In this document: piece after piece, positions 51,410 through 64,000 of the stretch
How the letters are laid out: each line of letters opens with the position of its first letter
Numbering within the stretch: position 1 is the first letter of the stretch
Source of the DNA: an uncultured virus (IMG/VR IMGVR_UViG_3300027708_002017)
Taxonomy: Duplodnaviria; Heunggongvirae; Uroviricota; Caudoviricetes
Direction: 5' to 3' (one strand)
Virus record (IMG/VR): IMGVR_UViG_3300027708_002017
Length of the DNA: 64,000 bases
Notes under the pieces: model-generated
The model's database searches: none
What the model was told of the DNA's origin: nothing
What the model saw: the letters and a program-made list of their open reading frames with translations, nothing else
Translations under genes and position numbers: made by a program

Positions 51410-51597
51410 ATCAAACCTACCATTCTAAAATATTCATCGTGCGGCACATAGAAATCCGTTTTGGGATCCCAGTACTTGCCTTCTTTTGGATCGTAGTACA
51501 AGATACGTCCTGCAACTAAAAATGGACCTTCAAGTTTAGGCAACGGGCCGTAGCCTTGATACAAGTCTGCTGTTCTGCCTAAAATTTTAAATGCCAT
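51406..51597 (-). CDS. Hypothetical protein
   Basis: LEGPF..GRILYYDPKEGKYWDP.TDFY; SD AGGAG. Confidence 0.7.
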   Translation of the reverse strand: MAFKILGRTADLYQGYGPLPKLEGPFLVAGRILYYDPKEGKYWDPKTDFYVPHDEYFRMVGLM

Positions 51598-51626
51598 TAT
51601 TCGCTCCTGTTTGTGTGTATGTATTA

Positions 51627-51655
51627 ATTATACTGTCTTTTGGCTAATACGTCAA
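51627..51655 (-). promoter_or_regulatory. sigma70-type promoter
   Basis: TTGACG-N17-TATAAT. Confidence 0.75.
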
Positions 51656-52050
51656 TCGATTGCCCTACGAAATATCAATTCTTGTTTACTAAACGCATCT
51701 ATTTCCCAAGGTTGTTGCAAATACGCAACACTTCTTCCGTAGAATTTGCCCTTCCATTTTAACCCTCTCGGAACAGGTTGTAATGTACCTTTGGCAAACT
51801 GTGCTACGTGAGCCAACTCGTGCGCCAGTGTTACACCTAGATCTACTCTATTGCGTTGCGGTTTAAGTACTACAAGAATAGTATCAATGCCCAACAATGG
51901 AACGGTTGTGCCATTGTCTTCTAACTCTTTGTCAATTTTTATGTGTAAAAGTTTTTTACTTTTGGTCAACTTCAATTGAGCCAGCATTGAGGGTAATAAT
52001 GTTTCAATGTATCTTTTGGTGCTGGAGCCAGCTTCAATATAAAATTCCAT
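51652..52050 (-). CDS. Zincin-like metallopeptidase
   Basis: TLAHELAHVAQ...PWEIDA. Confidence 0.7.
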   Translation of the reverse strand: MEFYIEAGSSTKRYIETLLPSMLAQLKLTKSKKLLHIKIDKELEDNGTTVPLLGIDTILVVLKPQRNRVDLGVTLAHELAHVAQFAKGTLQPVPRGLKWKGKFYGRSVAYLQQPWEIDAFSKQELIFRRAID

Positions 52051-52079
52051 ATCGCTCTCTGTTTTGTTGCTATGTGTAT

Positions 52080-52108
52080 ATTATAACATCAAAAAGAAAC
52101 CCTGTCAA
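52080..52108 (-). promoter_or_regulatory. sigma70-type promoter (its -35 lies inside the terminator hairpin)
   Basis: TTGACA-N17-TATAAT. Confidence 0.8.
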
Positions 52109-52116
52109 GCAGGGTT
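52091..52116 (-). terminator. Intrinsic terminator at the end of the tRNA array
   Basis: AACCCTG-CTTGA-CAGGGTT-TCTTTTT. Confidence 0.75.
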
Positions 52117-52118
52117 AA

Positions 52119-52196
52119 TGGAGCAACGGGAGGGATTTGAACCCCCGGTTTTAGGGATTTGCAATCCCTTGCATTGGACCTCTCTGCCACCGTTGC
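52119..52196 (-). tRNA. tRNA-Cys(GCA)
   Basis: Cloverleaf, AGGGA-TTGCAAA-TCCCT, U73, CCA. Confidence 0.93.
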
Positions 52197-52200
52197 ATAA

Positions 52201-52276
52201 TGGTAGGACGTGACGGGTTCGAACCGCCGACATTCTGCGTGTAAGGCAGACGCTCTACCAACTGAGCTAACGTCCT
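52201..52276 (-). tRNA. tRNA-Val(TAC)
   Basis: TCTGC-CTTACAC-GCAGA, CCA. Confidence 0.95.
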
Positions 52277-52282
52277 AAGTTT

Positions 52283-52558
52283 TTATTTGTATTGTGCTCT
52301 GCGATCAATTGCACGATCTCGCGGAGTATCAAATTTGATTTTCTTGATATAGTCTACGCCACACTCGCCTGATTGGAAATCAAGCAATGCACTAACATTA
52401 CTGTGCAAGTGTTCAAATTTTTGACTATCTTTGTTCTGTCGACGAATTTCTCGACTACGTGCGGCCGCCATAATGACAAGATTAAATCTATTGCCACCGG
52501 ACATTTCTACAATTTTGTCATTATCTAATTGGCCTACGCGGCTAGCTGTTTTAATCAT
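52283..52558 (-). CDS. rpoZ: RNA polymerase omega subunit-like protein
   Basis: GNRFNLVIMAAARSREI...ALLDF resembles the RpoZ core. Confidence 0.75.
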   Translation of the reverse strand: MIKTASRVGQLDNDKIVEMSGGNRFNLVIMAAARSREIRRQNKDSQKFEHLHSNVSALLDFQSGECGVDYIKKIKFDTPRDRAIDRRAQYK

Positions 52559-52577
52559 GTTCTATCCTTAAAATTGT

Positions 52578-52606
52578 ATTATACTGTCTAGCTGACAGAA
52601 TGTCAA
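52578..52606 (-). promoter_or_regulatory. sigma70-type promoter for rpoZ-tRNA-Val-tRNA-Cys
   Basis: TTGACA-N17-TATAAT. Confidence 0.85.
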
Positions 52607-53163
52607 CTATATTGCACGTCTGCAGCCAAAATAAATCTATAGTCTTCACTTTGGGCAATGCCTGGACGATGCCATAAATGACTAGGATAAATTAGCCATG
52701 TATAGTAGCTAGGGCGCACAAAAAACTTTTGATCACCTTCTGGTCCGTTTAAGGCAATCTCTGTCCCGCACGTATCCGAGTCTGCAACATCTTCAGGAAT
52801 ATGCAAATACATAATGCCACTGATGCCCTGTCCACCGTGTTTATCATGATGATGCCAGAGTGTATCTCTATCCGGCTGAGTAGACTGTTTAGTCATAAAA
52901 CTCCATGCCATCATGTTACTAACCCTTGCTTCATGTCCTAGATATAAGAATACACTGGTCAGGAATGTCATTCTATACTTTAACCAAATTGCCTCACTGC
53001 GTCCAAACAAATTTTCTTCTGTTTGGAATGGAGGGCTATTTTTAAAGTACTTGCCGCTTTCGATTATACTTTTGATAATGCCTATAGCTGTGTCGTTTTC
53101 GGTAGCTGTGATCAAGCTACTGTAATCATACTTACGGCAAATTTCGTTTTGATCTATAATCAT
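52603..53163 (-). CDS. 2OG-Fe(II) oxygenase
   Basis: WHHH..SGIMYL..IYPSHLWH..RFILAAD. Confidence 0.8.
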   Translation of the reverse strand: MIIDQNEICRKYDYSSLITATENDTAIGIIKSIIESGKYFKNSPPFQTEENLFGRSEAIWLKYRMTFLTSVFLYLGHEARVSNMMAWSFMTKQSTQPDRDTLWHHHDKHGGQGISGIMYLHIPEDVADSDTCGTEIALNGPEGDQKFFVRPSYYTWLIYPSHLWHRPGIAQSEDYRFILAADVQYS

Positions 53164-53720
53164 ATATTAAATGCAAACACCTTGCGGACGTTATCATTGA
53201 GTTTTTGTGGAATCTCATGTTCTAACCAGGCATTCCACAACATTATCATACCTGTTTCTGCTTTCACTTCAAATTCATGTGATCTGTTATCGCCAAATAC
53301 AGATGCGGCCCGGGGATCATGGAATACTATAGGCGGAACATCTTCACCTATATCTAAATACACAATACCCGAGAATGTAGCATTAGAATGCATATGACGT
53401 TTCATATAAGCATACTGTTTCATCGAATGAAAAAATCCGTAAGGATTAAATTTAATTTCGTTGTAAGGTATGCCACATTCTTCTGCTAGTGCGGCCGCAT
53501 GATTGTTCATAATATATGATAACACTTGCTGGACAACCAATTCAGAATTTACCGATTGATTATGTCTGGAATTGTATGTCGTAGGAAAATTATCTACACC
53601 AAACAACGCTGTATCCGTGTCGGGCAAATACTTGTCGCAAACAAGCAACAATTCTTTTGCAATATCCAAATTTACACTTTTTACAATGCAAGTTGGAAAG
53701 ACACGGTCTACAGTTATCAT
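53160..53720 (-). CDS. 2OG-Fe(II) oxygenase (TIGR02466-like)
   Basis: HMHSNATFSGIVYL..FHDPR..WLEHEI..RKVFAFN. Confidence 0.85.
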   Translation of the reverse strand: MITVDRVFPTCIVKSVNLDIAKELLLVCDKYLPDTDTALFGVDNFPTTYNSRHNQSVNSELVVQQVLSYIMNNHAAALAEECGIPYNEIKFNPYGFFHSMKQYAYMKRHMHSNATFSGIVYLDIGEDVPPIVFHDPRAASVFGDNRSHEFEVKAETGMIMLWNAWLEHEIPQKLNDNVRKVFAFNI

Positions 53721-53986
53721 GCAGTGCGCAAAATCAAATGATAGCCAAATTGTGTTTGCACTGGCTCACTTAATGCGCCGGGCTCTAATGCAAATGTTGC
53801 ATCTTCGAATGGCTTGACCATTTGTCCGCGACCAAACGGACCTAAGTTCCCACCTTGACGACCGCTAGGGCATTTACTGACTTGACCGGCAATGGTGGCA
53901 AAATCTCCGCCGTTAAGAAGCTCATCATGAATCTTCGATGCTTGTTCTTGTGTTTCTACTAAAATGTGACTTGCTGTTACTTGCAT
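53717..53986 (-). CDS. ppiC: Parvulin-type peptidyl-prolyl isomerase
   Basis: ASHILV, SKCPSG..GGNLG.F.RGQMVKPFE, PVQTQFGYHLI. Confidence 0.95.
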   Translation of the reverse strand: MQVTASHILVETQEQASKIHDELLNGGDFATIAGQVSKCPSGRQGGNLGPFGRGQMVKPFEDATFALEPGALSEPVQTQFGYHLILRTA

Positions 53987-53997
53987 GTTTTTTCCTT

Positions 53998-54510
53998 TTA
54001 TAAAATAGTTTCTAATAATTTTCTAATTTCTAAATTTAGCAAAGGTAGATTATTAAATGTTGTATTATTTTTACAAATCCAATTTGTTACTTTTACACCT
54101 TTAGCTAAGTTAAATTGTCCGCTTTTATGTACATAGTTGGCATTACATTCTGCCCACGTTAACTGTGCGATAGCAAAATTTGCAGGGTTTGACTGTATAC
54201 AAAGCAAATAATCAAACGAGTGCGCAAACGTTTGTTTGTTAGTATTCGCCAATGAAATTCTGCCAACTATGTCATCTCCTTTGAACATTTCAAAGGTCGA
54301 TTTTAATTCATATTTTAACCCAGTTTGCTGATCAATGCTATCGTATCCTTCAGCGTCTACATACTCTAATCTACCACCAGTGGCTTTTTCCAAAGCCAGG
54401 GCAATAACATCGCCTTTAAGGAATCGCAAATTCGGTTTATTAAATTGATTTCCTAATCTATCTAACATATCGACTACCGGTTGGTAGTCTACATTTACTA
54501 AAAAACTCAT
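53998..54510 (-). CDS. PD-(D/E)XK nuclease-like protein
   Basis: GYDSID...KYELKS. Confidence 0.5.
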   Translation of the reverse strand: MSFLVNVDYQPVVDMLDRLGNQFNKPNLRFLKGDVIALALEKATGGRLEYVDAEGYDSIDQQTGLKYELKSTFEMFKGDDIVGRISLANTNKQTFAHSFDYLLCIQSNPANFAIAQLTWAECNANYVHKSGQFNLAKGVKVTNWICKNNTTFNNLPLLNLEIRKLLETIL

Positions 54511-54525
54511 AGGTTCCTTTAAAAT

Positions 54526-54602
54526 TGGTCGGAGTACAAGGATTCGAACCTTGGACCCCCTGGTCCCAAACCAGGTGCGCTACCAGACTGCGCTACACTC
54601 CG
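54526..54602 (-). tRNA. tRNA-Pro(TGG)
   Basis: CCTGG-TTTGGGA-CCAGG, CCA. Confidence 0.95.
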
Positions 54603-54608
54603 AAATAA

Positions 54609-55256
54609 TTACCAGCCGAAAGATACTCGGCTTGCCTGTGCATCACCTACGCCTAAATTGCCAGATATGCTGATTCTATAGTCATCCGAACTGTAAAACG
54701 GATGCACCGAATGATTGAGCAGTGCTGGAAACAATATCATTGTACCTTCATAGGTCTTGTCTGCTGGAATAGCCCAAGGATTAATACACCCTAATATATC
54801 AAGATATTGGAATGTAAAGTTTCCAGAACAATTCCTATCTTCTAATACATAGCTGGTAGCTTCTTTTTCTTCTTGTATTGTGTAGGGAATCTTAACCCAG
54901 AGCACATACGAAAAATTACCACTATGACTATGCAACGGATTAAATTCGCCTTTGCGTTGAAAATTTACCCACGACTCGCCTGCTTTGTATTCTTCAAGAG
55001 GTCTAGTTTTATAACTAAATGCTTGTGCAAATCCGCCAATTAAATTTCTAGCCAGTTTTTCCAAAAGGTCGTGATTCTTAACCATTTGGTATTCGTGAGC
55101 CAATTGTCCCACCAAACTCTTTTGCATGGGAATAGCTTTTGTAAAATCTTCCTGGATTTCTGCAACTTCTGCTAGAATAGGTGCAAATTCTTCTTCTGTA
55201 AGTTTAGCACCCACAAATCCAAAATTTGGAAAACTACAATTATAATAATCTATCAT
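54609..55256 (-). CDS. 2OG-Fe(II) oxygenase
   Basis: WVNFQ..EFNPLHSH..FPALLNHSVHPF..RISISGN. Confidence 0.85.
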   Translation of the reverse strand: MIDYYNCSFPNFGFVGAKLTEEEFAPILAEVAEIQEDFTKAIPMQKSLVGQLAHEYQMVKNHDLLEKLARNLIGGFAQAFSYKTRPLEEYKAGESWVNFQRKGEFNPLHSHSGNFSYVLWVKIPYTIQEEKEATSYVLEDRNCSGNFTFQYLDILGCINPWAIPADKTYEGTMILFPALLNHSVHPFYSSDDYRISISGNLGVGDAQASRVSFGW

Positions 55257-55274
55257 GTGTATACCTTTTTATAA

Positions 55275-55348
55275 TGGAGCGGGATAAGAGAATCGAACTC
55301 TTGACCGAAGATTGGAAATCTGCTGTTTTACCATTAAACTAATCCCGC
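55275..55348 (-). tRNA. tRNA-Gly(TCC)
   Basis: Loop TTTCCAA, U73, CCA. Confidence 0.93.
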
Positions 55349-55456
55349 ACTTTATTAAAACAAACTAAGGTGTATTAAGTATGCTAGCTATGCCGAGCAG
55401 TGACTGGGATACCAAACCTGATCTTTTTACGGATTCTAATTTGTTTTAATAAAGTG
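55348..55456 (-). ncRNA. Stem-enclosed RNA cassette A
   Basis: Perfect 17-bp inverted repeat (55348-55364 / 55440-55456) around about 75 nt. Confidence 0.55.
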
Positions 55457-55650
55457 TTTAGCTACCCTCTCCCGAAGGCCCTAAACTGGGCGTAGTATCC
55501 GTACTGCATATTTCTATATGGACAGTTAATGCTCTGTCCTACGATTTTTTAAGTCTCCCGACATGGGTCTGTAAGGCAAGATCGTAAGCGCCTGATGGAT
55601 CTGGTAACCATCTACCCACTTTTAATTACCCTCAAAGTGTAACGGGGGAA
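55457..55650 (-). ncRNA. Putative multibranch structured RNA
   Basis: Helices GGCG/CGCC, TTACGAT/ATCGTAG, GACAG/CTGTC, CATAT/ATATG, AGTA/TACT, GATGG/CCATC. Confidence 0.5.
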
Positions 55651-55651
55651 C

Positions 55652-55727
55652 TGGTGCCCCTTGTCCGACTCGAACAGACCACCTACTGATTACAAATCAG
55701 TTGCTCTACCAGATGAGCTAAAGGGGC
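55652..55727 (-). tRNA. tRNA-Thr(TGT)
   Basis: ACTGA-TTTGTAA-TCAGT, CCA. Confidence 0.95.
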
Positions 55728-55737
55728 AAATAATTAA

Positions 55738-55950
55738 TTATGCTTCCGGTGCGGCCTCAGGTGCAACATATGGTGCATTACCACGAGCTGGTCCGCGATC
55801 GTTACGTGTAGGAGTTTTGATAACAACTTCACTACACAGCTGAGCATCAATCATCATGCGCTTGTATTGATTGCGTTGTTCTGTGTTAACAATACTGCAC
55901 AACATACGTTTGGTTTGTTTGCTTAAATTAAATGTCTTACCTGGTTTCAT
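55738..55950 (-). CDS. Small basic hypothetical protein
   Basis: 70 aa MKPGKTFNLSKQTKRML..., between tRNAs. Confidence 0.65.
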   Translation of the reverse strand: MKPGKTFNLSKQTKRMLCSIVNTEQRNQYKRMMIDAQLCSEVVIKTPTRNDRGPARGNAPYVAPEAAPEA

Positions 55951-55968
55951 ATTTTCTCTTTTTAAAAA

Positions 55969-56056
55969 TGGCGGAGTATGTAGGAATCGAACCTACTCAC
56001 CCATTGCTGAATGACAGATTAGCAATCTGTTGCCTTAACCGGTCGGCCAATACTCC
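55969..56056 (-). tRNA. tRNA-Ser(GCT)
   Basis: ACAGA-TTGCTAA-TCTGT, long variable arm, G73. Confidence 0.94.
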
Positions 56057-56086
56057 ATGTTTGGTATTTTACTTATATCATCTAAC

Positions 56087-56171
56087 TGGTGCGACTGCCC
56101 GGAATCGAACCGGGACGCTGTTAAGCGAGAGATTTTAAGTCTCTTGTGTCTACCTATTTCACCACAGTCGC
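56087..56171 (-). tRNA. tRNA-Leu(TAA)
   Basis: AGAGA-CTTAAAA-TCTCT, long variable arm. Confidence 0.95.
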
Positions 56172-56177
56172 GATATC

Positions 56178-56251
56178 TGGCGTACCCCCAGGGACTCGAA
56201 CCCCGACGAACAGTTTTGGAGACTGTGATGCTGCCATTACATTAGGGATAC
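56178..56251 (-). tRNA. tRNA-Trp(CCA)
   Basis: ACAGT-CTCCAAA-ACTGT, G73. Confidence 0.93.
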
Positions 56252-56256
56252 ATGAT

Positions 56257-56346
56257 TGGCGGAAACGGTGAGATTTGAACTCACGGTGCCTTTCGACACG
56301 ACAGTTTTCAAGACTGTTGCAATAAACCGGACTCTGCCACATTTCC
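56257..56346 (-). tRNA. tRNA-Ser(TGA)
   Basis: ACAGT-CTTGAAA-ACTGT, long variable arm. Confidence 0.95.
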
Positions 56347-56421
56347 ATATAGAAACACACTAGCGGCAATGCCATCTTACTATCCCAGTATGTCGGGTGT
56401 TGGCTAATGTGTTTGTATATG
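56346..56421 (-). ncRNA. Stem-enclosed RNA cassette B
   Basis: CATATACAAACACATTAGC / GCTAGTGTGTTTCTATATG (18 of 19 pairs) around 38 nt. Confidence 0.55.
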
Positions 56422-56502
56422 GTGCCCCAACCGAGACTCGAACTCGGACGCTTGCGCACTGGCTTCTAAGACCAGCGTGTCTACCAATTCCACCATCGGG
56501 GC
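56420..56502 (-). tRNA. tRNA-Leu(TAG)
   Basis: CTGGT-CTTAGAA-GCCAG. Confidence 0.95.
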
Positions 56503-56516
56503 AAAACTTTTTATAA

Positions 56517-56529
56517 TTTTTAAAGAACA
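56517..56529 (-). promoter_or_regulatory. boxA-like Nus antitermination element
   Basis: TGTTCTTTAAAAA (boxA consensus GYTCTTTAANA) between promoter and tRNA-Leu. Confidence 0.6.
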
Positions 56530-56556
56530 AATTTACTAATTGCTTAGTATGTGACT

Positions 56557-56585
56557 ATTATATAACACATACGATACAATGTCAA
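56557..56585 (-). promoter_or_regulatory. sigma70-type promoter
   Basis: TTGACA-N17-TATAAT. Confidence 0.85.
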
Positions 56586-56604
56586 CAACTATTTAATATT
56601 ATCT

Positions 56605-56679
56605 TGGCCGGTCCTGAGAGGATCGAACTCCCACCGTCGGTTTCGAAGACCGAAATGATATCCATTTCACCAAGGACCG
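56605..56679 (-). tRNA. tRNA-Arg(TCG)
   Basis: TCGGT-CTTCGAA-ACCGA. Confidence 0.92.
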
Positions 56680-56680
56680 A

Positions 56681-57874
56681 TTATGCTTTTAACTTTGTTA
56701 AATCTATTTTATAGCCTTTTAAATAGGCTGTCATCATGGACACATCTGTTGGATAATATCCAGTGATTGTACCAGTTGCTTCAACTTCAGCAAGCCATTT
56801 TTGCCATCTTGCAGATTTCTTTAAATGGTCAACTGAACGTATTTTTAATGCGTTCCAAAAAGGACTGTCGATTTGATTATCACCGCAGTAGTTTAACGCC
56901 ATCAAATTTTGTATGTCTTCCATAGCCTCGTTATTAAATTTATTGATAACATGATTCATTTCGTCTATAGATGCTTTATTTAAAACACCATCAATAAAAC
57001 AATCGGACAACAATGCATAGTAATGCAATGGCATTGCCTGTTGCGGTTCATATAGATATAATCTGTTGCCCATGGATAAAATTCTTCCATCTATAGCACG
57101 AGCTTTTCTATAAGGCCGCCAGCTAAAATTTCTCAGTGTTGATGCATCTATGCCTTTGATTTTACTAAAATCTTCTACGGCTTCTTTGTAGGAAGTAAAC
57201 TCTTTGTTATAACAATACCCAAATGCTTTTCTTAATGTTAGAGGAACACCAAACATCCACCCATTGTTGTGTACATACGCCGATGTATTATTTTCCTGAT
57301 AGTCTTTAAAATCAGGATTCAATATCACAGAATTAACTGATTGAAATACATCTGTTACATAAGTGTCACTGTCTAATTCTTCTGCTTTTGGAGATCCTGA
57401 ACAATCTACTACAAAATCAAATGTATAGCTGTCGGCTTTGCCTTTGACTAACACACTGTTCTCTTGATTCTCTACAGATATTACTTCATCAAATATTTCA
57501 TGAAAATAGCTATATTTGTCAACGAGCTTTTTAAAAACATAATTACTCCACTTATCGCTGTTTAAATGTAAACCGGGAGTGTAGTAACGAATAGTAAAAT
57601 CGTTGCCGTTGGCATCTGCCCAAAAATATTTTGTATAATATCTGAGTGTGCCGTCGTACTTTTCTAATTCTTCTAAAAAACCTACACCTAACACATCTCG
57701 CATGGTATCATGTACAAGTCCGCTAGTACTTTCTCCCACTTGTGCTGTGGGCTTTGTGGGATCACTTAGACAATACAGTTCTATATCCGTGAACTTGCCG
57801 CGGGTTAGAGTTTGTATCATAATTAATATTGATATTGCACTGGCCGTGCCGGCTCCTATAATTCCTATTTTCAT
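56681..57874 (-). CDS. Tryptophan halogenase-like flavoprotein (divergent)
   Basis: IGAGTAS, VGEST, VDCSG, GWMFGVP, GNRLYLYEP. Confidence 0.75.
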   Translation of the reverse strand: MKIGIIGAGTASAISILIMIQTLTRGKFTDIELYCLSDPTKPTAQVGESTSGLVHDTMRDVLGVGFLEELEKYDGTLRYYTKYFWADANGNDFTIRYYTPGLHLNSDKWSNYVFKKLVDKYSYFHEIFDEVISVENQENSVLVKGKADSYTFDFVVDCSGSPKAEELDSDTYVTDVFQSVNSVILNPDFKDYQENNTSAYVHNNGWMFGVPLTLRKAFGYCYNKEFTSYKEAVEDFSKIKGIDASTLRNFSWRPYRKARAIDGRILSMGNRLYLYEPQQAMPLHYYALLSDCFIDGVLNKASIDEMNHVINKFNNEAMEDIQNLMALNYCGDNQIDSPFWNALKIRSVDHLKKSARWQKWLAEVEATGTITGYYPTDVSMMTAYLKGYKIDLTKLKA

Positions 57875-58461
57875 TTTATATACACCACTCGGTTTTTACT
57901 AGCTTTAACTAGTGATTCAATAGTTTCTTCTAATCTGTTTACATTAAAAGATATAGATCTTCTTTTTGTATTAGTTGTCTTAAGCGGAATACGATGTGGT
58001 GTTTCGGCTGGCCAAATCATCATCTTTCCAAGTTTGGATTCATACGGTGTAGCAACACCGTTGATTCTAAATTCTATACGGGACTCTGGTTCTGTAAATT
58101 CATGATAGTAAACACCGGACAACATAGTAGGCTTATGATTGTGCCAAAGTGCCGCACTGCCTTCTTGCATGTCAGTTGCCCAACAGTCTACAATTTTAAA
58201 ATTTGTATCGCCTAGATAATCTTCAACGTTTTTTGTAATAACACTTTTTAAAACATCAAGATTATGGAGATCTATAATGTTAATCATCATGTCTCCATAA
58301 CTAGTAGCCACACGCGGTGTGCCAATAGGTTTACCTTGTTTTATATCTTCGTCGTCGAATTGATTAGAATAATGTAAAGGCAAATTATAAAAGTCACCTA
58401 GTTCTTTTTGTAAATCTTCAAAGTATTGTCCCGTGACTTGGTATTCTTTAATTTTACTCAT
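57871..58461 (-). CDS. 2OG-Fe(II) oxygenase
   Basis: WHNH..LSGVYY..WPAETPH..RRSISFN. Confidence 0.85.
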   Translation of the reverse strand: MSKIKEYQVTGQYFEDLQKELGDFYNLPLHYSNQFDDEDIKQGKPIGTPRVATSYGDMMINIIDLHNLDVLKSVITKNVEDYLGDTNFKIVDCWATDMQEGSAALWHNHKPTMLSGVYYHEFTEPESRIEFRINGVATPYESKLGKMMIWPAETPHRIPLKTTNTKRRSISFNVNRLEETIESLVKASKNRVVYIK

Positions 58462-59197
58462 TGGGCATCCTTGGCTGACTTAATCTATACCACATTAGCC
58501 CGTCTACTAATTCGTTATATTGACTTGCATCTAAATTACAAAATTCAAATATGGGCTGTAAGAATGCATTTTCATCGCCGTCTAAATAATCAGCGTATGA
58601 TATGTGCAGTACATTATCTAATACATATTTCTTTTTGGCAGAAACAAATAAGATTTCTTCGTCGAGCCATTTAAAGAATTCAAGATTTTCTAAATTTAGA
58701 TGTTGTATTCGATTGACACATTCATTGTAATCCTGCTTGTATTTTTCTACTAAGCCTGTCAGCAAACTAACATTACCACTGATTGATTTGTGTAGAACAT
58801 TAAATCTGCATCGCTTTATTTGATCACTAGTAGTGTCTATACAAATAAATTTTGCAGTAGGAAACGCTTCTATGAATATGTCAAGATTAGCACAATGTAA
58901 TGATATTACTGTTGGCCTATAAAAGGGTATTATAAAATTTTGTAAGTGCTCTATTCGTTGCGCAGTGGTCCACGTTTCATAGTGTGTATCATCTACAATA
59001 GCTCTGCCGATATCACTAAACAAATGGTCTTTGTATACACCTTGTATATGACTAATATAAGTGTTGCCGTGTCCCGAACCTTTACTGTCTACAATAAGAT
59101 TGACTTCAGGTGTTAGAGCTTTCTGTATCATACTGGCTAGAAAAGTTCCGCCTGCACCTAACGGATAGCATATAAAAATAATAGGGTGATCATTCAT
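58454..59197 (-). CDS. Sulfotransferase-like / P-loop protein
   Basis: ICYPLGAGGTFLASMI; FPTAKFI; ISYAD. Confidence 0.5.
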   Translation of the reverse strand: MNDHPIIFICYPLGAGGTFLASMIQKALTPEVNLIVDSKGSGHGNTYISHIQGVYKDHLFSDIGRAIVDDTHYETWTTAQRIEHLQNFIIPFYRPTVISLHCANLDIFIEAFPTAKFICIDTTSDQIKRCRFNVLHKSISGNVSLLTGLVEKYKQDYNECVNRIQHLNLENLEFFKWLDEEILFVSAKKKYVLDNVLHISYADYLDGDENAFLQPIFEFCNLDASQYNELVDGLMWYRLSQPRMPNE

Positions 59198-59218
59198 CAA
59201 CTATATATCTTATTTAAG

Positions 59219-59293
59219 TGGCCCGGCTAGCAGGAATCGAACCCACATTCTAGAGGTAGAAGCTCTATGTACTATCCATTGTACTATAGCCAG
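59219..59293 (-). tRNA. tRNA-Arg(TCT)
   Basis: TAGAG-CTTCTAC-CTCTA. Confidence 0.92.
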
Positions 59294-59300
59294 ATAATCT

Positions 59301-59329
59301 ATTATATGTTATTTACTAGCATGTGTCAA
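59301..59329 (-). promoter_or_regulatory. sigma70-type promoter
   Basis: TTGACA-N17-TATAAT, 7 nt before tRNA-Arg(TCT). Confidence 0.85.
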
Positions 59330-59330
59330 G

Positions 59331-59418
59331 TGGTGCCCTGGATGAGATTCGAACTCACAACTAGGTTTTTCCTTCTTCCTTTTGAGAGAAGTGCGTCTAC
59401 CAATTTCGCCACCAGGGC
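59331..59418 (-). tRNA. tRNA-Leu(CAA)
   Basis: CTTCT-CTCAAAA-GGAAG, long variable arm. Confidence 0.9.
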
Positions 59419-59420
59419 AA

Positions 59421-60002
59421 TTATTTCAATTCAAAATTACCTAGATTAAAACTCATACTAATACGTTCAACGCTTGAATGAAACGGATGTACTGAATGAT
59501 TTAAATCTGCTGGAAACAATAGTATGTCTCCGCTATTAGGTTTAATAGCATATTTTTGATCATCGTGAGCAAATTCAATATGACCTGCAAGATTATCTTC
59601 AAAAATTTCTTCAGGAATGTCTATGTAAATCACAGCACTCATTTCGCCACCGTGTGCGTGAAAATCTATATATTCGTTTTCTGTTTGAAAATTTATCCAA
59701 GCCACTGGCATATAAAAATTAACACTGGTATATTCACTTTGTTCCGCAGTATTAATATAATTTAGAATATGTGATCCTATACAATTAGTGAATATGCTAA
59801 TTTGTTCGTTAGTAAATCCAACTTTCAAATGATTTTTTAGTGCGGATGTATTATCTGCCCATAAGTTTGCTCCAACATTTTCGTTATGTTGTCTAGTTTC
59901 TTCTGCTATATTTTTTAAAAATAACAAAAAATCTTTATCAATTGTGCTACTATACATAGTAGGACCGTTATTTCCAAAATGCTTAGTTACTTTATAAGTC
60001 AT
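59421..60002 (-). CDS. 2OG-Fe(II) oxygenase
   Basis: Start MTYKV; WINFQ..FHAH..SAVIY..FPADLNHSVHPF..RISMSFN. Confidence 0.85.
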   Translation of the reverse strand: MTYKVTKHFGNNGPTMYSSTIDKDFLLFLKNIAEETRQHNENVGANLWADNTSALKNHLKVGFTNEQISIFTNCIGSHILNYINTAEQSEYTSVNFYMPVAWINFQTENEYIDFHAHGGEMSAVIYIDIPEEIFEDNLAGHIEFAHDDQKYAIKPNSGDILLFPADLNHSVHPFHSSVERISMSFNLGNFELK

Positions 60003-60018
60003 ATAATATCCAAATAAG

Positions 60019-60092
60019 TGGAGCGGGATAGGAGAATCGAACTCCTGACTAAACCTTGGCAAGGTTTCGTTTGACCATTAAACTAATCCCGC
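60019..60092 (-). tRNA. tRNA-Gly(GCC)
   Basis: AAACC-TTGCCAA-GGTTT. Confidence 0.93.
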
Positions 60093-60358
60093 ATAAAGAT
60101 ATTAATAGAAAGCACTAAAAGTTTTGGTCCTCGTCAAAGAAAACATGGCTACCCAGGTCTTACAGTCCTGCTCTATTTGTCTAGCAAACATGGGGCACCT
60201 TTGCCGCGCTTAGAATCTCCCAGACTGTAAATCCTGATTCTTATCACTGCCGGCTTGCATACAGTTTATAACTGTCCTTTCTCCGCAACTTTCCGAGTTA
60301 CAAATACTTGTTGTTTCCAAATGCGTGTATGCCTTGTGCTTTCTATTAATAACTTTAT
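60093..60358 (-). ncRNA. Stem-enclosed RNA cassette D (about 220-nt structured cargo)
   Basis: 22 of 23 bp terminal stem (core ATTAATAGAAAGCAC/GTGCTTTCTATTAAT); internal GCATAC/GTATGC, TTACAGTC/GACTGTAA. Confidence 0.6.
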
Positions 60359-60411
60359 TTATAAAGTGTCAGATTGTTCTCCGCACAACCTGACAAAGCG
60401 GGGGTCTGTCT

Positions 60412-60487
60412 TGGTACACCCTGTTGGAATCGAACCAACTTCAACGGCTCTTCAGACCGCCGCTATGACCACATCAGCTAAAGGTGC
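60412..60487 (-). tRNA. tRNA-Phe(GAA)
   Basis: GCGGT-CTGAAGA-GCCGT. Confidence 0.92.
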
Positions 60488-60489
60488 AT

Positions 60490-60581
60490 TGGTACCAGCG
60501 GAGGGGATCGAACCCTCTCAAGAACGCTAATCTGGCGCTAAAAGGTGTATAAGACCTCTCTGACTTCCAAGTCTCGCTGGC
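60490..60581 (-). tRNA. Atypical tRNA with TAT anticodon (Ile-UAU?)
   Basis: GCCAGCG/CGCTGGT-A-CCA; mini D arm ACT-TGGA-AGT; AGAGGT-CTTATAC-ACCTTT; long variable arm. Confidence 0.75.
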
Positions 60582-60590
60582 AAAAAAAAT

Positions 60591-60666
60591 TGGGGTATCC
60601 TACCGGTATCGATCCGGTACTACCGCTTTCACAGAGCAGGGTGCAGGCCACTACACTAAGGACACC
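60591..60666 (-). tRNA. tRNA-His(GTG)
   Basis: Encoded G-1:C73; CTGCT-CTGTGAA-AGCGG; T-loop ATCGATA. Confidence 0.9.
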
Positions 60667-60671
60667 GTAGA

Positions 60672-61343
60672 TTAAAACTGTTTGATTTGATATTGACGTG
60701 ACCTGACATAGTTTTGATATGCAGGATTTTGAAACTCTTGTTTCATTATATCTTCAAGACCTTCGATTAAAGGCTGGGGAATATTTAATAAGAAACTGTT
60801 TGTACTGTATCGCACACCAGTTTCGACTGGGTCTACTCCATGCACCCAAAAATAATCTGCTGGCCAAATCATTCCTTCGCCGGCAGATAGTTTAACACGA
60901 TGTTCGCCGTTCCAAAATACAAAATCTCCGCCAGTATAATCATCATTCAAATTAAATGTAGCACTGCCGTACACATGAGGACCATGATCCGTGTGTGGAT
61001 GTATTTTGGCGCCAGGTTCATATTTTAACAGTCGATACATGTGACTGAACACCATACTGCGTCTAGCAAACACATGGAACATTTTAAATGTGTCCAAATA
61101 GTCCATGTACTCATTGATAAGAGTTTCATTGGCTTTGAAAACCAAATTCCACGCTTCGGTACCGTATACTAATTCGCCTCTTTTAAATGTGCTCTGTGTG
61201 TTGACACCGGTATTTGCATCTGGGCAATTTTCCAAAGTATCATTATTTTCTAATTTAGCGTATTCTTCAATTAAAAATTGACATTCCTCTTTGCTGAACG
61301 CATTTTTTTTATGAAAAATTAATTGAGTTAAGTTTATAGTCAT
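60672..61343 (-). CDS. Prolyl-4-hydroxylase-like 2OG-Fe(II) oxygenase
   Basis: Start MTINL; LLKYEPG..HPHTD..LNDDYTGG..WVHGV..RYS. Confidence 0.88.
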   Translation of the reverse strand: MTINLTQLIFHKKNAFSKEECQFLIEEYAKLENNDTLENCPDANTGVNTQSTFKRGELVYGTEAWNLVFKANETLINEYMDYLDTFKMFHVFARRSMVFSHMYRLLKYEPGAKIHPHTDHGPHVYGSATFNLNDDYTGGDFVFWNGEHRVKLSAGEGMIWPADYFWVHGVDPVETGVRYSTNSFLLNIPQPLIEGLEDIMKQEFQNPAYQNYVRSRQYQIKQF

Positions 61344-61365
61344 GCAACTATTTATTTTGCAGTTC

Positions 61366-61440
61366 TGGTACCGCCACAAGGAATCGAACCTCAATTACCA
61401 GTTCCGCAAACTAGTGTATTATCCATTATACGATAGCGAT
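61366..61440 (-). tRNA. tRNA-Arg(GCG)
   Basis: CTAGT-TTGCGGA-ACTGG; D-loop A20. Confidence 0.88.
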
Positions 61441-61445
61441 AAATT

Positions 61446-61521
61446 TGGCACCCCCTGATGGACTCGAACCACCGCGTGTCGGAATCAAAATCCGATGCCT
61501 TACCAACTTGGCGAAGAGGGT
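61446..61521 (-). tRNA. tRNA-Gln(TTG)
   Basis: TCGGA-TTTTGAT-TCCGA, G73. Confidence 0.93.
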
Positions 61522-61523
61522 AT

Positions 61524-61599
61524 TGGTGGTAATAGCTGGACTCGAACCAGCGATAGACTGCGTATGAAGCAGTTGCATTAGCCACTATGCTATATTACC
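61524..61599 (-). tRNA. tRNA-CAT (elongator Met, or Ile2)
   Basis: ACTGC-TTCATAC-GCAGT, G1:C72. Confidence 0.9.
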
Positions 61600-61687
61600 A
61601 TATAGAAACACACTCGGACCGTTTTCATCAGCAGACGGTGGTCTTGCCTTATGTAAACTATGTCTACATCGAATATGTTTTTATATG
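61599..61687 (-). ncRNA. Stem-enclosed RNA cassette C
   Basis: CATATAAAAACATATTCG / CGAGTGTGTTTCTATATG (17 of 18 pairs, G-U pairs only on the minus strand); 3' arm shared with cassette B. Confidence 0.55.
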
Positions 61688-61760
61688 GTGCGGGCAGAGG
61701 GATTCGAACCCACGACCAATAGATTAAAAGTCTACTGCTCTACCACTGAGCTATACCCGC
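61686..61760 (-). tRNA. tRNA-Lys(TTT)
   Basis: GTAGA-CTTTTAA-TCTAT. Confidence 0.95.
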
Positions 61761-61812
61761 GATCATCTTGCCACTCTTGTCACTATTCATGACAGATCTC
61801 CTTTTAAAAATT

Positions 61813-61887
61813 TGGTACTCCGAACGAGTATCGATCTCGCTTCTTCGCCTTGAAAGGGCAACGTTCTAGCCACTAAACTACCGGAGT
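61813..61887 (-). tRNA. tRNA-Glu(TTC)
   Basis: TTGCC-CTTTCAA-GGCGA; T-loop ATCGATA. Confidence 0.88.
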
Positions 61888-61892
61888 GTATT

Positions 61893-61967
61893 TGGTAGCC
61901 AATGATGGGAACGATCCATCGACCCTCGCCTTATCAAGACGATGCTCTACCACTGAGCTAATTGGCT
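61893..61967 (-). tRNA. tRNA-Ile(GAT)
   Basis: TCGTC-TTGATAA-GGCGA; T-loop ATCGTTC. Confidence 0.9.
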
Positions 61968-61970
61968 GTT

Positions 61971-62046
61971 TGGTGGAGGATACAGGGATCGAACCTGCGA
62001 CCTATTGCTTGCAAAGCAACCGCTCTCCCAACTGAGCTAATCCCCC
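61971..62046 (-). tRNA. tRNA-Ala(TGC)
   Basis: G3:U70; GTTGC-TTTGCAA-GCAAT. Confidence 0.95.
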
Positions 62047-62315
62047 AAAATGCTCTGACGTCCCCCGGCGGTAATTATAGTGTATCAGAAATTTCGTCAA
62101 GTTGCCCCAACTAGTCTATTCATCACTTACACCTTCCACCCGCTTCCCGACAGGGACCGCTCTCGTGTTGCTAACGCCGGTTAGGTTGGACCGCACATAC
62201 ATCCATGTTCTATCATGGCCTCTGTGTGAAACTTTTACGTTTCAGAACCACCCGTAGTTGTCACACTACTTCTCATCGTCTGGGTCAGACTATCCAGTGA
62301 CGCTGGAACGTTCTT
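62047..62315 (-). ncRNA. Putative structured RNA(s) between tRNA-Asn and tRNA-Ala
   Basis: GC-richer non-coding stretch with hairpins TCCAG/CTGGA, GTAGT/ACTAC, TGAAAC/GTTTCA, CCATG/CATGG and GTCCC/GGGAC. Confidence 0.5.
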
Positions 62316-62391
62316 TGGCTCCCCGAGGTGGGTTCGAACCACCGACCTGCGGATTAACAGTCCGTCGCTCTACCGACTGAGCTATCAGGGA
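62316..62391 (-). tRNA. tRNA-Asn(GTT)
   Basis: Loop CTGTTAA, G73. Confidence 0.95.
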
Positions 62392-62397
62392 ACAATT

Positions 62398-62471
62398 TGG
62401 TTGCGGGACCTAGAATCGCACTAGGAACTGTAGCTTATGAGACTACCGAGATACTATTTCTCTATCCCGCG
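62398..62471 (-). tRNA. Initiator-like tRNA-fMet(CAT), atypical
   Basis: C1:A72 mismatch, CGCGGG acceptor; anticodon stem GTAGT/GCTAC lacks the 3GC pairs. Confidence 0.82.
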
Positions 62472-62477
62472 ATAACC

Positions 62478-62553
62478 TGGTACACGGTACGGGAATCGAA
62501 CCCGTCTTACTGACGTGAAAGGCCAGTGTCCTAAACCGATAGACGAACCGTGC
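62478..62553 (-). tRNA. tRNA-Glu(TTC), second copy
   Basis: CTGGC-CTTTCAC-GTCAG. Confidence 0.92.
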
Positions 62554-62562
62554 ATACTAACT

Positions 62563-62637
62563 TGGCGGCTCCAAGGGGAATCGAACCCCTATTAATGGCG
62601 TGACAAGCCACCGTACTAACCATTATACTATGAAGCC
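62563..62637 (-). tRNA. tRNA-Asp(GTC)
   Basis: GTGGC-TTGTCAC-GCCAT, G73. Confidence 0.94.
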
Positions 62638-62644
62638 TAAAACT

Positions 62645-62729
62645 TGGTGGAGAAAGTAAGATTCGAACCTACTCACCCGAAGGAACAGATTTACAGTCTG
62701 CCGCGCCTCTCCCACTGCGCCGTTTCTCC
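62645..62729 (-). tRNA. tRNA-Tyr(GTA)
   Basis: GCAGA-CTGTAAA-TCTGT, long variable arm, A73. Confidence 0.93.
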
Positions 62730-62737
62730 ATGTCTTA

Positions 62738-62766
62738 ATTATAACACTCTCCCGCTATGCTGTCAA
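62738..62766 (-). promoter_or_regulatory. sigma70-type promoter embedded in hairpin cassette E, upstream of tRNA-Tyr
   Basis: TTGACA-N17-TATAAT. Confidence 0.65.
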
Positions 62767-62794
62767 CCGCTGTGCAGGCGGAGGTGGAGAGTGT

Positions 62795-62855
62795 GTATTA
62801 AAGCACTCTACATGGATGAACCCACTTGCCTTACGGCCTGAGAATGCTTTAATAC
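62795..62855 (-). ncRNA. Stem-enclosed RNA cassette F
   Basis: GTATTAAAGCATTCT / AGAGTGCTTTAATAC (15 bp) around 31 nt. Confidence 0.55.
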
Positions 62856-62966
62856 GCTACGATTTTTCGATCCAGAAGAGGAGTTTCATCCCGTAGGCCG
62901 CCCATTCGCCCATGTTTAGAGTGCAGGCTAGGATCTCGTTTCCTATACACACTTTTTCGAAAGTCT

Positions 62967-63006
62967 AAAAACAAAAAACCCCAGGGTTTTTAATCCTAGG
63001 GTCCTT
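62967..63006 (-). terminator. Intrinsic terminator (attenuator) ahead of the tRNA array
   Basis: GGACCCTAGG-ATTAAAAAC-CCTGGGGTTT followed by TTTGTTTTT. Confidence 0.85.
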
Positions 63007-63028
63007 GGAGTTTGAATGTAAACTGTGT

Positions 63029-63175
63029 TTACAAAATGTCCTCCCGGACCCTGTGATTCTCTGGTGTACGATCATATGATAAACTTCCGCCATTAATCGA
63101 TGACCAAGAACAGGCTATAATGCCTGCCTGCTTGGGCATTGTATTAAACAGCTGATGTCTAAAATTTGATTGCAT
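63029..63175 (-). CDS. Putative leader peptide (48 aa)
   Basis: MQSNFRHQLFNTMPKQAGIIACSWSSINGGSLSYDRTPENHRVREDIL; purine-rich upstream (GAGA); stop sits inside the antiterminator. Confidence 0.6.
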   Translation of the reverse strand: MQSNFRHQLFNTMPKQAGIIACSWSSINGGSLSYDRTPENHRVREDIL

Positions 63176-63233
63176 TTTGTTTCTCGTTTATCTCTTCTTT
63201 AAAATTAGCTAGCATCTTTGCTAACTAGTCTCT

Positions 63234-63262
63234 ATTGTAGCACCTTGCTACCATGTTGTCAA
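63234..63262 (-). promoter_or_regulatory. sigma70-type promoter P2 of the leader/tRNA array
   Basis: TTGACA-N17-TACAAT. Confidence 0.8.
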
Positions 63263-63316
63263 CACTTTTTAAAAAATATTTTGAAAATTTTTCTGGAGCA
63301 CTAACAACATGTCTTT

Positions 63317-63345
63317 ATTGTATGTTTATTTAGTCTCTTTGTCAA
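63317..63345 (-). promoter_or_regulatory. sigma70-type promoter P1 of the leader/tRNA array
   Basis: TTGACA-N17-TACAAT. Confidence 0.8.
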
Positions 63346-63369
63346 CTACTTGATTGAAATGTTGTATTT

Positions 63370-64000
63370 TTACGACATCCCAAGATCTTTTCTGATTTTT
63401 GTAGCACTGATGTCGGTGATACTGCTGTCAAAAGTTTCTTGTTCAATTCGGTAGCCAACATCTCGACCATATGTTATGTTTACAATGTTAGGCACTATCT
63501 GTATAGTATACTGCCCTTGATACAACATGTCAAGATCTCTTTGAATAAATTTCTTAACTTTTTCAATTTCAAACGGATTGCTTCCTTGCCAGCCTTGACA
63601 ATCGCGGATCATGATACACACTTGACCAGTCTTAGCAATGGCACGATCAAACAATGCTCTGTGGCCATCATGCCATGGCTGCCAACGACCCAGCATCTGC
63701 ACTGTTTCCTTTTGCCAGTCAAACGTCGGACGTCTACGATTGTCAATGATATGTGCGGCAACAAACTCGCCCCACTTTTCTGAGTTTTGTTCAGTGATTC
63801 TAAAATCGTATTCTGCTGGTTCGACAAACATAGCGTTAGTATCCGCATAACGTCCTTCACGGATTGTGTCTACCCAAATAGTCCAATCTGCTTTGAAGTT
63901 GTGGCGCATTTCTGCCAATGGCGCAACAAAGTCACAGATAACATAATCCATATCAGTCATGCTGTCAGCTAGTTCTCGCATACGCAGACTTTGACGAATA
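63370..64000 (-). CDS. Adenylyl-sulfate-kinase-like domain fused to an HIGH-type nucleotidyltransferase (5' end beyond window)
   Basis: Frame open to window edge (IRQSLRMR); VICDFVAP..MFVEP; GRWQPWHDGH; ISATKIR. Confidence 0.75.
   Translation of the reverse strand, partial: IRQSLRMRELADSMTDMDYVICDFVAPLAEMRHNFKADWTIWVDTIREGRYADTNAMFVEPAEYDFRITEQNSEKWGEFVAAHIIDNRRRPTFDWQKETVQMLGRWQPWHDGHRALFDRAIAKTGQVCIMIRDCQGWQGSNPFEIEKVKKFIQRDLDMLYQGQYTIQIVPNIVNITYGRDVGYRIEQETFDSSITDISATKIRKDLGMS

Follow-up and report, generated by a model that had tools for sequence, protein, structure and literature searches.

Annotations of phage tRNA arrays usually list tRNA genes with junk spacers between them. In phage T4, the tRNA cluster also encodes two stable non-tRNA RNAs of unknown function, RNAC and RNAD (species 1 and 2), which are presumably co-transcribed with the tRNAs and released by the tRNA machinery. 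Processing stems for RNase III occur in rRNA operons and at sites in the early mRNA of phage T7. REP/BIME and Correia elements and miniature inverted-repeat transposable elements (MITEs) are multicopy sequences with inverted terminal arms and a variable centre that are transcribed as hairpins and spread within genomes. In processing of the E. coli type, tRNA ends with an encoded CCA and a U at position -1 are made by RNase P and an endonuclease plus trimming. For the E. coli genes proK, proL, and proM, RNase E is reported to cut directly after the CCA and to remove a stem-loop in one step (PMC5291269). PeSLs combine a stem-loop of the terminator type with an early (sigma-70-like) promoter behind it and lie between protein genes in hyperplastic regions of T4-type phages (PMC4122927), and GOLLD and ROOL are large, ornate structured RNAs with conserved cores and unknown function in phage tRNA islands (bioRxiv 10.1101/2024.12.08.627333). 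Here we analyze a 64,000-nt stretch of DNA (hereafter, the window) from the uncultured virus IMGVR_UViG_3300027708_002017, and define in its tRNA array a sequence-conserved, orientation-locked AT-rich hairpin whose edges lie at mature tRNA ends. The hairpins B, C, and, more distantly, A of this window are members of a family found in the tRNA arrays of an uncultured lake phage clade with genomes of ~170-225 kb. We regard it as a structured spacer or processing hairpin of the phage tRNA cluster that behaves as a repeat family.

Like RNAC and RNAD of T4, the hairpins lie within a phage tRNA cluster, on the tRNA strand, with predicted promoters upstream. Unlike them, they form one family with a conserved AT-rich stem, 2-5 copies per genome and at least 126 viral loci, with edges at tRNA ends and hypervariable loops. 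A blastn search of positions 55200-63000 against 50,697 GenBank phage records gave tRNA matches only, hence no sequence similarity to the T4 RNAs, and hairpin C alone gave a single chance match among the GenBank phages. As in the proline tRNA precursors of E. coli, a stable stem-loop stands right after an encoded CCA; there, however, it is a Rho-independent terminator at the transcript end (PMC5291269), whereas here it is an internal AU-rich hairpin without a U-run and the next tRNA follows at once. With RNase III processing stems the hairpins share about two helical turns (17-25 bp; 15 bp in F, Table 1) that bracket an RNA within a polycistronic precursor, and an internal mismatch, but the present stem is conserved in sequence, not in structure alone. 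GOLLD and ROOL are likewise structured non-coding RNAs of phage tRNA islands, and a relative of this phage carries GOLLD; the elements described here are simple hairpins, and the window itself has no GOLLD or ROOL match.

The initial annotation of the window had described six spacers between tRNA genes, A to F, each closed by a stem with a related 3' arm. An inverted-repeat scan of positions 55200-63100 returned 58 pairs. The longest is D, with 23-nt arms that are 96% complementary and 220 nt apart, and the next three are A, B, and C, with 20-nt arms that are 95%, 90%, and 85% complementary, respectively; F ranked 12th (15 nt, 93%), and E was not among the top 25 pairs listed. When minus-strand (tRNA-strand) RNA was folded and compared with 200 dinucleotide shuffles, we obtained z-scores of -4.16 for A and -3.74 for B (0 shuffles as good in either case), -4.33 for C (1), -5.11 for F (0), and -2.84 for E (2), and D folded together with its 53-nt upstream piece gave -4.59 (0 of 100 shuffles as good). 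Five of the six stems, A, B, C, D, and F, are thus real by repeat length or folding, whereas E is weak and lies in a predicted promoter region. The four 3'-arm strings originally quoted are all present, but their relatedness proved narrower than described. B and C share an exact 16-mer in the outer arm, which has 4 matches in the window at up to 3 mismatches against 1.24 expected, and a covariance model made from B/C-type hairpins scores B at 62.9 bits, C at 62.7 bits, and A at 31.2 bits (E 6e-5). Because the same model misses both D and F at E <= 1, the kinship of these two to the B/C family is mere resemblance.

The stems of B and C measure 17-18 bp, or 20-21 bp if the CCA/GG(U) pairs are counted, and C still forms when folded together with both flanking tRNAs, extending into ACCA/UGGU. 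On the 3' side, the arms of A, B, C, and D reach the next tRNA or extend one base into it; in B, the last arm base is tRNA +1. The 5' arms of B and C start inside the CCA of the preceding tRNA (2 nt inside for B); those of A and D start 195 and 53 nt past the upstream tRNA and do not adjoin it. The proposed location between tRNA genes and within tRNA transcription units, the latter as predicted, holds for A, B, C, and D, whereas E and F stand upstream of the first tRNA (Tyr).

We then scanned IMG/VR with the 3'-arm 16-mer of B and C and, reciprocally, with the 5' arm; all family counts are among the matches listed. The 3'-arm 16-mer occurs at at least 126 loci, at least 120 of them containing tRNA genes, and in nearly all tRNA-bearing loci it lies on the tRNA strand and reads as the 3' arm. 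Its commonest partner 5' arm, CATATAAAAACACATT, starts two bases before the end of the upstream tRNA, which is mostly tRNA-Lys, Gln, or Glu. On the tRNA strand the element reads (tRNA...C)CA-UAUAAAAACACAUU, variable loop, AGUGUGUUUCUAUAU-(G, tRNA +1). Since its edges fall at the CCA and at tRNA +1, the element coincides exactly with the stretch of RNA that has to be cut out between two mature tRNA ends. The 5'-arm scan gave at least 124 loci and 133 occurrences, 88 of which start at the CA of a tRNA CCA; 103 are on the tRNA strand, 26 are in tRNA-free loci (mostly without the partner arm), and 4 are on the opposite strand, each being a perfect palindrome that is read twice. Downstream of 120 unique hairpins, a tRNA begins within 12 nt in 57 cases and in 11 more at a relaxed ARAGORN threshold, and one hairpin is too near the end of its locus.

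Control 16-mers rarely fell in tRNA loci (0 of 36 for the D arm and 8 of 118 for the A arm); therefore, the tRNA association of the B/C 16-mer is not a chance effect of AT-rich sequence. In 596 Gb of bacterial and archaeal genomes the B/C 16-mer was found at 81 loci, of which 8 have tRNA arrays, all on short contigs of metagenome-assembled genomes. In five related viral records of 168-225 kb, three of them rated complete, 20 of 20 matches at up to 2 mismatches lie inside tRNA-array zones, and the reversed pattern gave 0 matches in the same records; arrays hold ~2-5 family copies. The covariance model has 16 matches across the window and five long loci, every one with its higher score on the tRNA strand, which, for a model built from that strand, shows consistent orientation only. 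The family is not described in Rfam or in the literature found, which covered papers open without subscription. The observation that started this work was largely right, and the family is real and much larger than a single window could show.

The earlier claims that G-U pairs exist on the tRNA strand only, and that this points to selection at the RNA level, are both borne out. Such pairs are present in A, B, C, and F. Across 110 unique hairpins collected with a fixed 3' arm, nearly all variation in the 5' arm consists of C-to-U changes opposite G or A-to-G changes opposite U: we counted 41 wobble-preserving changes, position 15 excluded, against a single change that creates an A-C mismatch, and position 15 itself is U-G in 82 hairpins and C-G in 28. 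Among 102 3' arms collected with a fixed 5' arm, the two main changes (35 cases) both restore standard pairs and ~9 create mismatches. In an alignment of 64 sequences anchored on the arms (A1), 89.3% of cells pair, against 86.1% after column shuffling, with a covariation score of 0.138 against 0.091; 0 of 500 shuffles reach either value, and sliding the partner by 1-3 columns lowers pairing to 27-56%. At pair 21-82, the first one within the conserved block, six pair types occur, and both sides have changed in 25 of the 64 sequences. Another alignment, A5, which holds both strands of each hairpin, was left out of the pair counts. Fully compensated arm variants are present in relatives, and in five sequences of hairpin A the 3' arm is invariant and all five 5'-arm changes give G-U. 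Together, the wobble-only substitutions and the covarying pair indicate, at the level of sequence comparison, selection for the fold on the tRNA strand.

In B/C-type hairpins, conservation is lowest in the loop. The segment between the 16-base arms ranges from 29 to 123 nt, and the shortest members pair most of it as an extended stem. The loops of the 110 hairpins fall into 88 clusters, and their G+C content (0.49) compares with 0.51 for tRNAs and 0.42 for the loci. Five loci have the order spacer, tRNA-Lys, hairpin; in these, the 52-nt spacer has a median identity of 0.86 (range 77-90%) and the loops one of 0.49, which is the noise level for global alignment. Because unrelated loops stand beside a well-kept spacer, they are replaced rather than slowly diverged. 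Moreover, of 17 loop clusters with more than one member, 16 are found in several tRNA contexts (one hairpin lies at a Leu/Ala junction in one contig and at a Lys/Arg junction in another), so the B/C loops look like filler. A modular system that releases a set of functional small RNAs, as the initial annotation had proposed, is thus unlikely for B and C, whose loops are hypervariable and unrelated between close phages. Two other ideas about the loops were set aside: decayed tRNAs, as only 7 of the 110 loops have a tRNA T-arm-like piece beside the 3' arm (0-1 in shuffles), and an internal promoter, as TTGACA occurs in 7 loops and a second hexamer at a suitable spacing was not seen by eye. Bacterial Y RNA (YrlA)-like features were not found either: five related viral records lack a TROVE/Ro domain, no Rfam family matched, and the T-arm-like piece is confined to those 7 loops.

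The proposal of structured cargos fared better for A and F. Four distinct relatives retain the A cargo, including a small covarying inner hairpin, and 4 relatives retain the F cargo together with its stem, at 85-90% identity and with two compensatory stem pairs among 5 sequences; both may, judging from this conservation, have a function of their own. Among homologous spacers, the B/C arms, A, and F thus covary, whereas the B/C cargos are unconserved across relatives. The 195-nt stretch between tRNA-Thr and hairpin A (55457-55651, minus strand) contains an extra hairpin just upstream of A that is kept in relatives, as well as CCATATAGAAAT, which resembles the family 5' arm. A longer conserved RNA may exist here, with A as its 3' part. 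For D, a diverged relative was not found in IMG/VR or the JGI metagenomes with either the arm 16-mer (36 chance loci, none a relative) or a cargo 18-mer (0 matches in IMG/VR; 7 loci in JGI metagenomes, of which one, L491, is genuine and 99.8% identical). An Rfam scan of positions 51000-64000 at E <= 1 matched nothing in A-F or in other spacers, and cargo complementarity to the rest of the window is limited to 9-13-nt matches with chance E-values.

Assembled contigs from four lake or freshwater metatranscriptome runs, in which DNA carry-over is possible, include an exact match to the D cargo (60098-60295), a contig (61412-61641) that joins part of C to tRNA-Met, Gln, and Arg, and matches to the F region and to a relative's B hairpin with both flanks. 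Three open reading frame bins (56897-58251, 59607-59877, and 60691-60961) have almost no contig cover, which for assembled contigs is uninformative.

Most likely, the hairpins mark how the tRNA precursor is cut rather than a special set of cargo RNAs. Our preferred explanation, to which we give a little less than an even chance, is that B/C-type elements are transcribed spacer hairpins that are excised during tRNA maturation and spread by recombination. CCA is encoded by 170 of 172 array tRNAs, and 130 of 172 have U at -1. The hairpin would form in the polycistronic tRNA precursor, and RNase P would cut at its 3' edge. At the 5' edge, either an RNase E-type enzyme would cut directly after the CCA, or RNase III would cut within the ~17-21-bp stem, with trimming to follow; an RNase III gene was not found in five related viral records (3 rated complete), and a host enzyme could still act. 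A hairpin-capped by-product would be released, the B/C-type loop being filler, and A and F would be longer-lived members with a conserved enclosed RNA. Recombination or gene conversion between copies would keep the arms alike, carry them to new junctions, and reshuffle the neighboring tRNAs, which fits because the arms are near-identical between copies and whole hairpins and loops are mobile. Such hairpins would offer a handle on how long phage tRNA polycistrons are cut and on how tRNA gene order is reshuffled between phages, with a stem-loop adjoining the CCA as a possible general one-step signal for 3'-end formation. The spacer RNAs worth functional study would be A, F, and a 269-nt RNA described below, which are conserved with covariation, and not the B/C loops.

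Several observations weigh against excision during tRNA maturation. Most junctions of these arrays have spacers of 2-10 nt and no hairpin, so a hairpin is not generally required for processing, and 51 of the 120 hairpins have no recognizable tRNA directly after them; their followers are another hairpin, small two-hairpin elements, or odd tRNA-like genes. The arm sequence is kept far beyond the needs of a nuclease that reads structure only, such as RNase III, and such conservation is equally well or better accounted for by a sequence-specific partner or by a selfish repeat evolving in concert. Position 7 is an unexplained A-C mismatch in 89 of the 110 hairpins (it is mended to a standard pair in 18 of the 102 3'-arm variants). 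The family counts are not independent events, because the sequences are related and were gathered by exact match to one arm, and the RNA-library contigs give presence only, neither ends, strand, nor level. Finally, the proposed nuclease roles are modelled on those in E. coli.

Because the presence of a hairpin at only some junctions lacks an explanation, a second reading stays alive, which we consider not probable but a serious contender: a selfish palindromic repeat resembling REP, Correia, or MITE elements that gives the phage no benefit and is tolerated since tRNA processing removes it, with the pairing signal reflecting a need not to disturb the neighboring tRNAs. Like those elements, the present family has terminal inverted repeats and 2-5 copies per array, with near-identical arms at different junctions of many divergent phages and loops free to vary. 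The same hairpins between different tRNA pairs (the 16 of 17 clusters above), tandem hairpins with no tRNA between them (L037), the many junctions without one, and a Lys-to-Tyr junction that is 9 nt in one related phage (L209) and a hairpin plus 9 nt in another (L210) all suit such a repeat. Cut-and-paste elements, however, usually insert both ways and disperse genome-wide, whereas here orientation is locked to tRNA transcription (103 occurrences versus the 4 palindromic ones) and the copies in whole records are confined to tRNA arrays (20 of 20 matches). A target-site duplication was not seen at the one comparable junction, L209 versus L210, where the 9-nt spacers differ; no transposase is known for the family, and no candidate was seen among the window genes. 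The wobble-only substitutions and the covarying pair also speak for selection on the fold rather than mere tolerance. A purely DNA-level account appears quite improbable to us. In it, the arms would be short homology or hairpin sites at which co-infecting phages swap tRNA genes and loops as cassettes, comparable to shuffling by PeSLs, short intergenic motifs that are able to drive modular shuffling (PMC4122927). PeSLs share with our element a short conserved intergenic motif with a stem-loop, repeated in a phage genome and linked to the shuffling of neighbor genes, and the differing tRNA neighbors around the same hairpin, the differing tRNA order between relatives, and the replaced loops agree with this account. 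The present element, though, has a much longer stem, sits only at tRNA ends, and carries no promoter consensus (E alone overlaps a 12/12 promoter match; A, B, C, D, and F contain none). The one-strand bias toward G-U points to RNA and not to duplex DNA, no recombinase was identified, and any repeated sequence could cause shuffling as a side effect.

The model of the initial annotation, in which RNase III cleaves at the stems and so releases a set of functional small RNAs (decoys, antitoxin mimics, or anti-defense RNAs) from the tRNA polycistron, is in our estimate unlikely. It draws on the cargos of A and F, kept with their stems in 4 relatives each, and on the covarying inner hairpin of A, as well as on the strongly structured D cargo (z -4.59) with its exact RNA-library match and on the excess of T-arm-like pieces in loops over shuffles. 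It also gains from the setting, since tRNA islands house GOLLD and ROOL (bioRxiv 10.1101/2024.12.08.627333), and one relative has GOLLD in its array. Against it stand the B/C loops, which are hypervariable, share no relationship between close relatives, and are almost missing in some members; the absence of a diverged homologue of D; the placement of E in a promoter and of F upstream of the predicted start; and cargos that match no Rfam family and show no above-chance complementarity elsewhere in the window. A variant of this idea, which we regard as a long shot, would treat the conserved arms as cassette borders, the loops as an exchangeable, hypervariable library under diversifying selection, and the stem as read by a dedicated partner. 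If this were true, each phage would express just a few small RNAs capped by a hairpin, taken from a very large pool and swapped between junctions and phages via the arms, for example as decoys or competitors for host RNA-targeting defenses or RNases, forming an RNA counterpart of cassette arrays within tRNA operons. Relative to these possibilities, excision of the hairpins during tRNA maturation is the explanation that we retain.

Table 1. Positions of hairpins, neighboring tRNA genes, predicted promoters, and a structured RNA in the window.
Feature	Position	Strand	Description
Hairpin A	55349..55456	minus	Stem 20-21 bp; 3' arm adjoins tRNA-Gly(UCC); cargo ~67 nt
Hairpin B	56347..56419	minus	Stem 18 pairs, 38 nt enclosed; whole gap tRNA-Leu(UAG)/tRNA-Ser(UGA)
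Hairpin C	61600..61685	minus	Stem 17 pairs, 53 nt enclosed; whole gap tRNA-Lys(UUU)/tRNA-Met(CAU)
Hairpin D	60093..60358	minus	Stem 23-25 bp; 3' arm adjoins tRNA-Gly(GCC); encloses 212-220 nt of strongly folded RNA
Stem E	62744..62794	minus	Weak GC-rich 9-bp stem; encloses promoter -35 hexamer
Hairpin F	62795..62855	minus	Stem 15 bp; upstream of the first tRNA of the array and of the predicted promoter start
tRNA-Lys(UUU)	61686..61760	minus	Encoded CCA end is the initial part of the hairpin C 5' arm
tRNA-Met(CAU)	61524..61599	minus	First base is the last base of the hairpin C 3' arm
Predicted promoter P1	62738..62766	minus	12/12, TG-extended; TTGACA 62766-62761, TATAAT 62743-62738; before tRNA-Tyr
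Predicted promoter P2	59301..59329	minus	12/12; fills the tRNA-Leu(CAA)/tRNA-Arg(UCU) spacer
Predicted promoter P3	56557..56585	minus	12/12; upstream of tRNA-Leu(UAG), hairpin B, then, further on, hairpin A
Structured RNA, 269 nt	62047..62315	minus	Between tRNA-Asn and tRNA-Ala; not closed by an AT-rich stem

A scan of 8.4 kb with the sigma-70-type consensus TTGACA-17-TATAAT found three 12/12 matches, all on the tRNA strand and all just upstream of tRNAs; by our own arithmetic, ~0.003 would be expected by chance. The tRNA cluster would accordingly be driven from three perfect host-type promoter matches. In P1, the -35 hexamer lies within the E loop and the -10 hexamer directly past the E 3' arm, so that E is best described as a predicted promoter region and not as a spacer stem. 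The P1 start would fall ~1-2 nt before tRNA-Tyr, and E and F would therefore lie upstream of the start of the tRNA-Tyr transcript. From the positions of P1 and P2, transcripts are predicted to begin no more than 1-2 nt away from the mature 5' ends of tRNA-Tyr and tRNA-Arg(UCU) and to be nearly leaderless. Upstream of F, a terminator-like hairpin with a T-run (~63002-62967, minus strand) was read by eye, its 9-nt loop having escaped the scan. In the relatives, a mini-hairpin that is the counterpart of E follows F, and a tRNA (Tyr, Trp, or Gln) comes next; the -35 hexamer is not present in the E counterpart of the four relatives. F and E together are a conserved module ahead of the first tRNA of an array segment, not an inter-tRNA spacer.

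The window comes from a large phage. Its 29 tRNA genes are all on the minus strand, between 52119 and 62729, and are interspersed with genes for 2-oxoglutarate (2OG)-Fe(II) oxygenases, a tryptophan-halogenase-like protein, and others; the remainder of the window encodes radical-SAM proteins, an ATP-dependent DNA ligase, and a head maturation protease. Freshwater and lake metagenome runs contain most of the window sequence, with shares of 0.73 and 0.67 in the best two. The closest cultured ligases, from Bacillus-group phages, are at most 30-36% identical, so a close cultured relative of this phage is absent, and a protein search with the 2OG oxygenase beside D found no relatives. A cyanophage identity was considered in light of the many 2OG-Fe(II) oxygenase and halogenase genes and is not established for the clade; psbA was not found in the five related viral records.

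In an Rfam scan of the relatives, only tRNA, GOLLD, and transfer-messenger RNA (tmRNA) reached gathering scores. The GOLLD RNA (RF02032, 194 bits) is at 8097-8562 on the minus strand of L209, inside the tRNA array and with an embedded tRNA. The tmRNA is in the array of another relative (L211, 5513-5957, plus strand) and matches betaproteobacterial and permuted models, which may give a weak hint of the host group. Between tRNA-Asp and tRNA-Arg, L211 also has a tRNA with a CUA anticodon, called tRNA-Pyl by ARAGORN, and a CUA-anticodon tRNA was read by eye, in a 110-nt piece, downstream of hairpins in L003, L035, L050, and L064; these tRNAs are possible amber suppressors. In L209, L210, L031, L033, L062, and L071, tRNA-like genes missed by default ARAGORN begin right after the hairpin 3' arm; among them are a tRNA-Ser(UGA)-like gene with a long arm and a tRNA-Lys(CUU)-like gene whose T-loop is odd. 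Therefore, the tRNA counts of these arrays are underestimates.

Two further elements of the array are conserved. The 269-nt RNA between tRNA-Asn and tRNA-Ala is kept in at least 5 relatives, has compensatory changes in 14 of 47 predicted pairs (5 sequences), is present in lake metatranscriptome contigs, and has no Rfam match; we consider it a candidate for a new structured RNA in phage tRNA arrays. Between tRNA-Glu and tRNA-Lys (61740-61812, minus strand), the 52-nt spacer is 77-94% identical in at least 11 relatives and contains AGGAG, 6 nt, and an ATG at 61790 that opens a 16-codon mini-ORF, MNSDKSGKMIAGIAQW, running into the tRNA-Lys(UUU) gene. The same ribosome-binding site and ATG, and an S-D-K-S-G/D-K core, occur in 18 of 70 distinct tRNA-Lys(UUU) upstream regions of the loci analyzed, with synonymous third-base changes. 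The mini-ORF could encode a leader peptide with Lys codons, through which maturation of the phage tRNA-Lys would be tied to how much charged tRNA-Lys is available.

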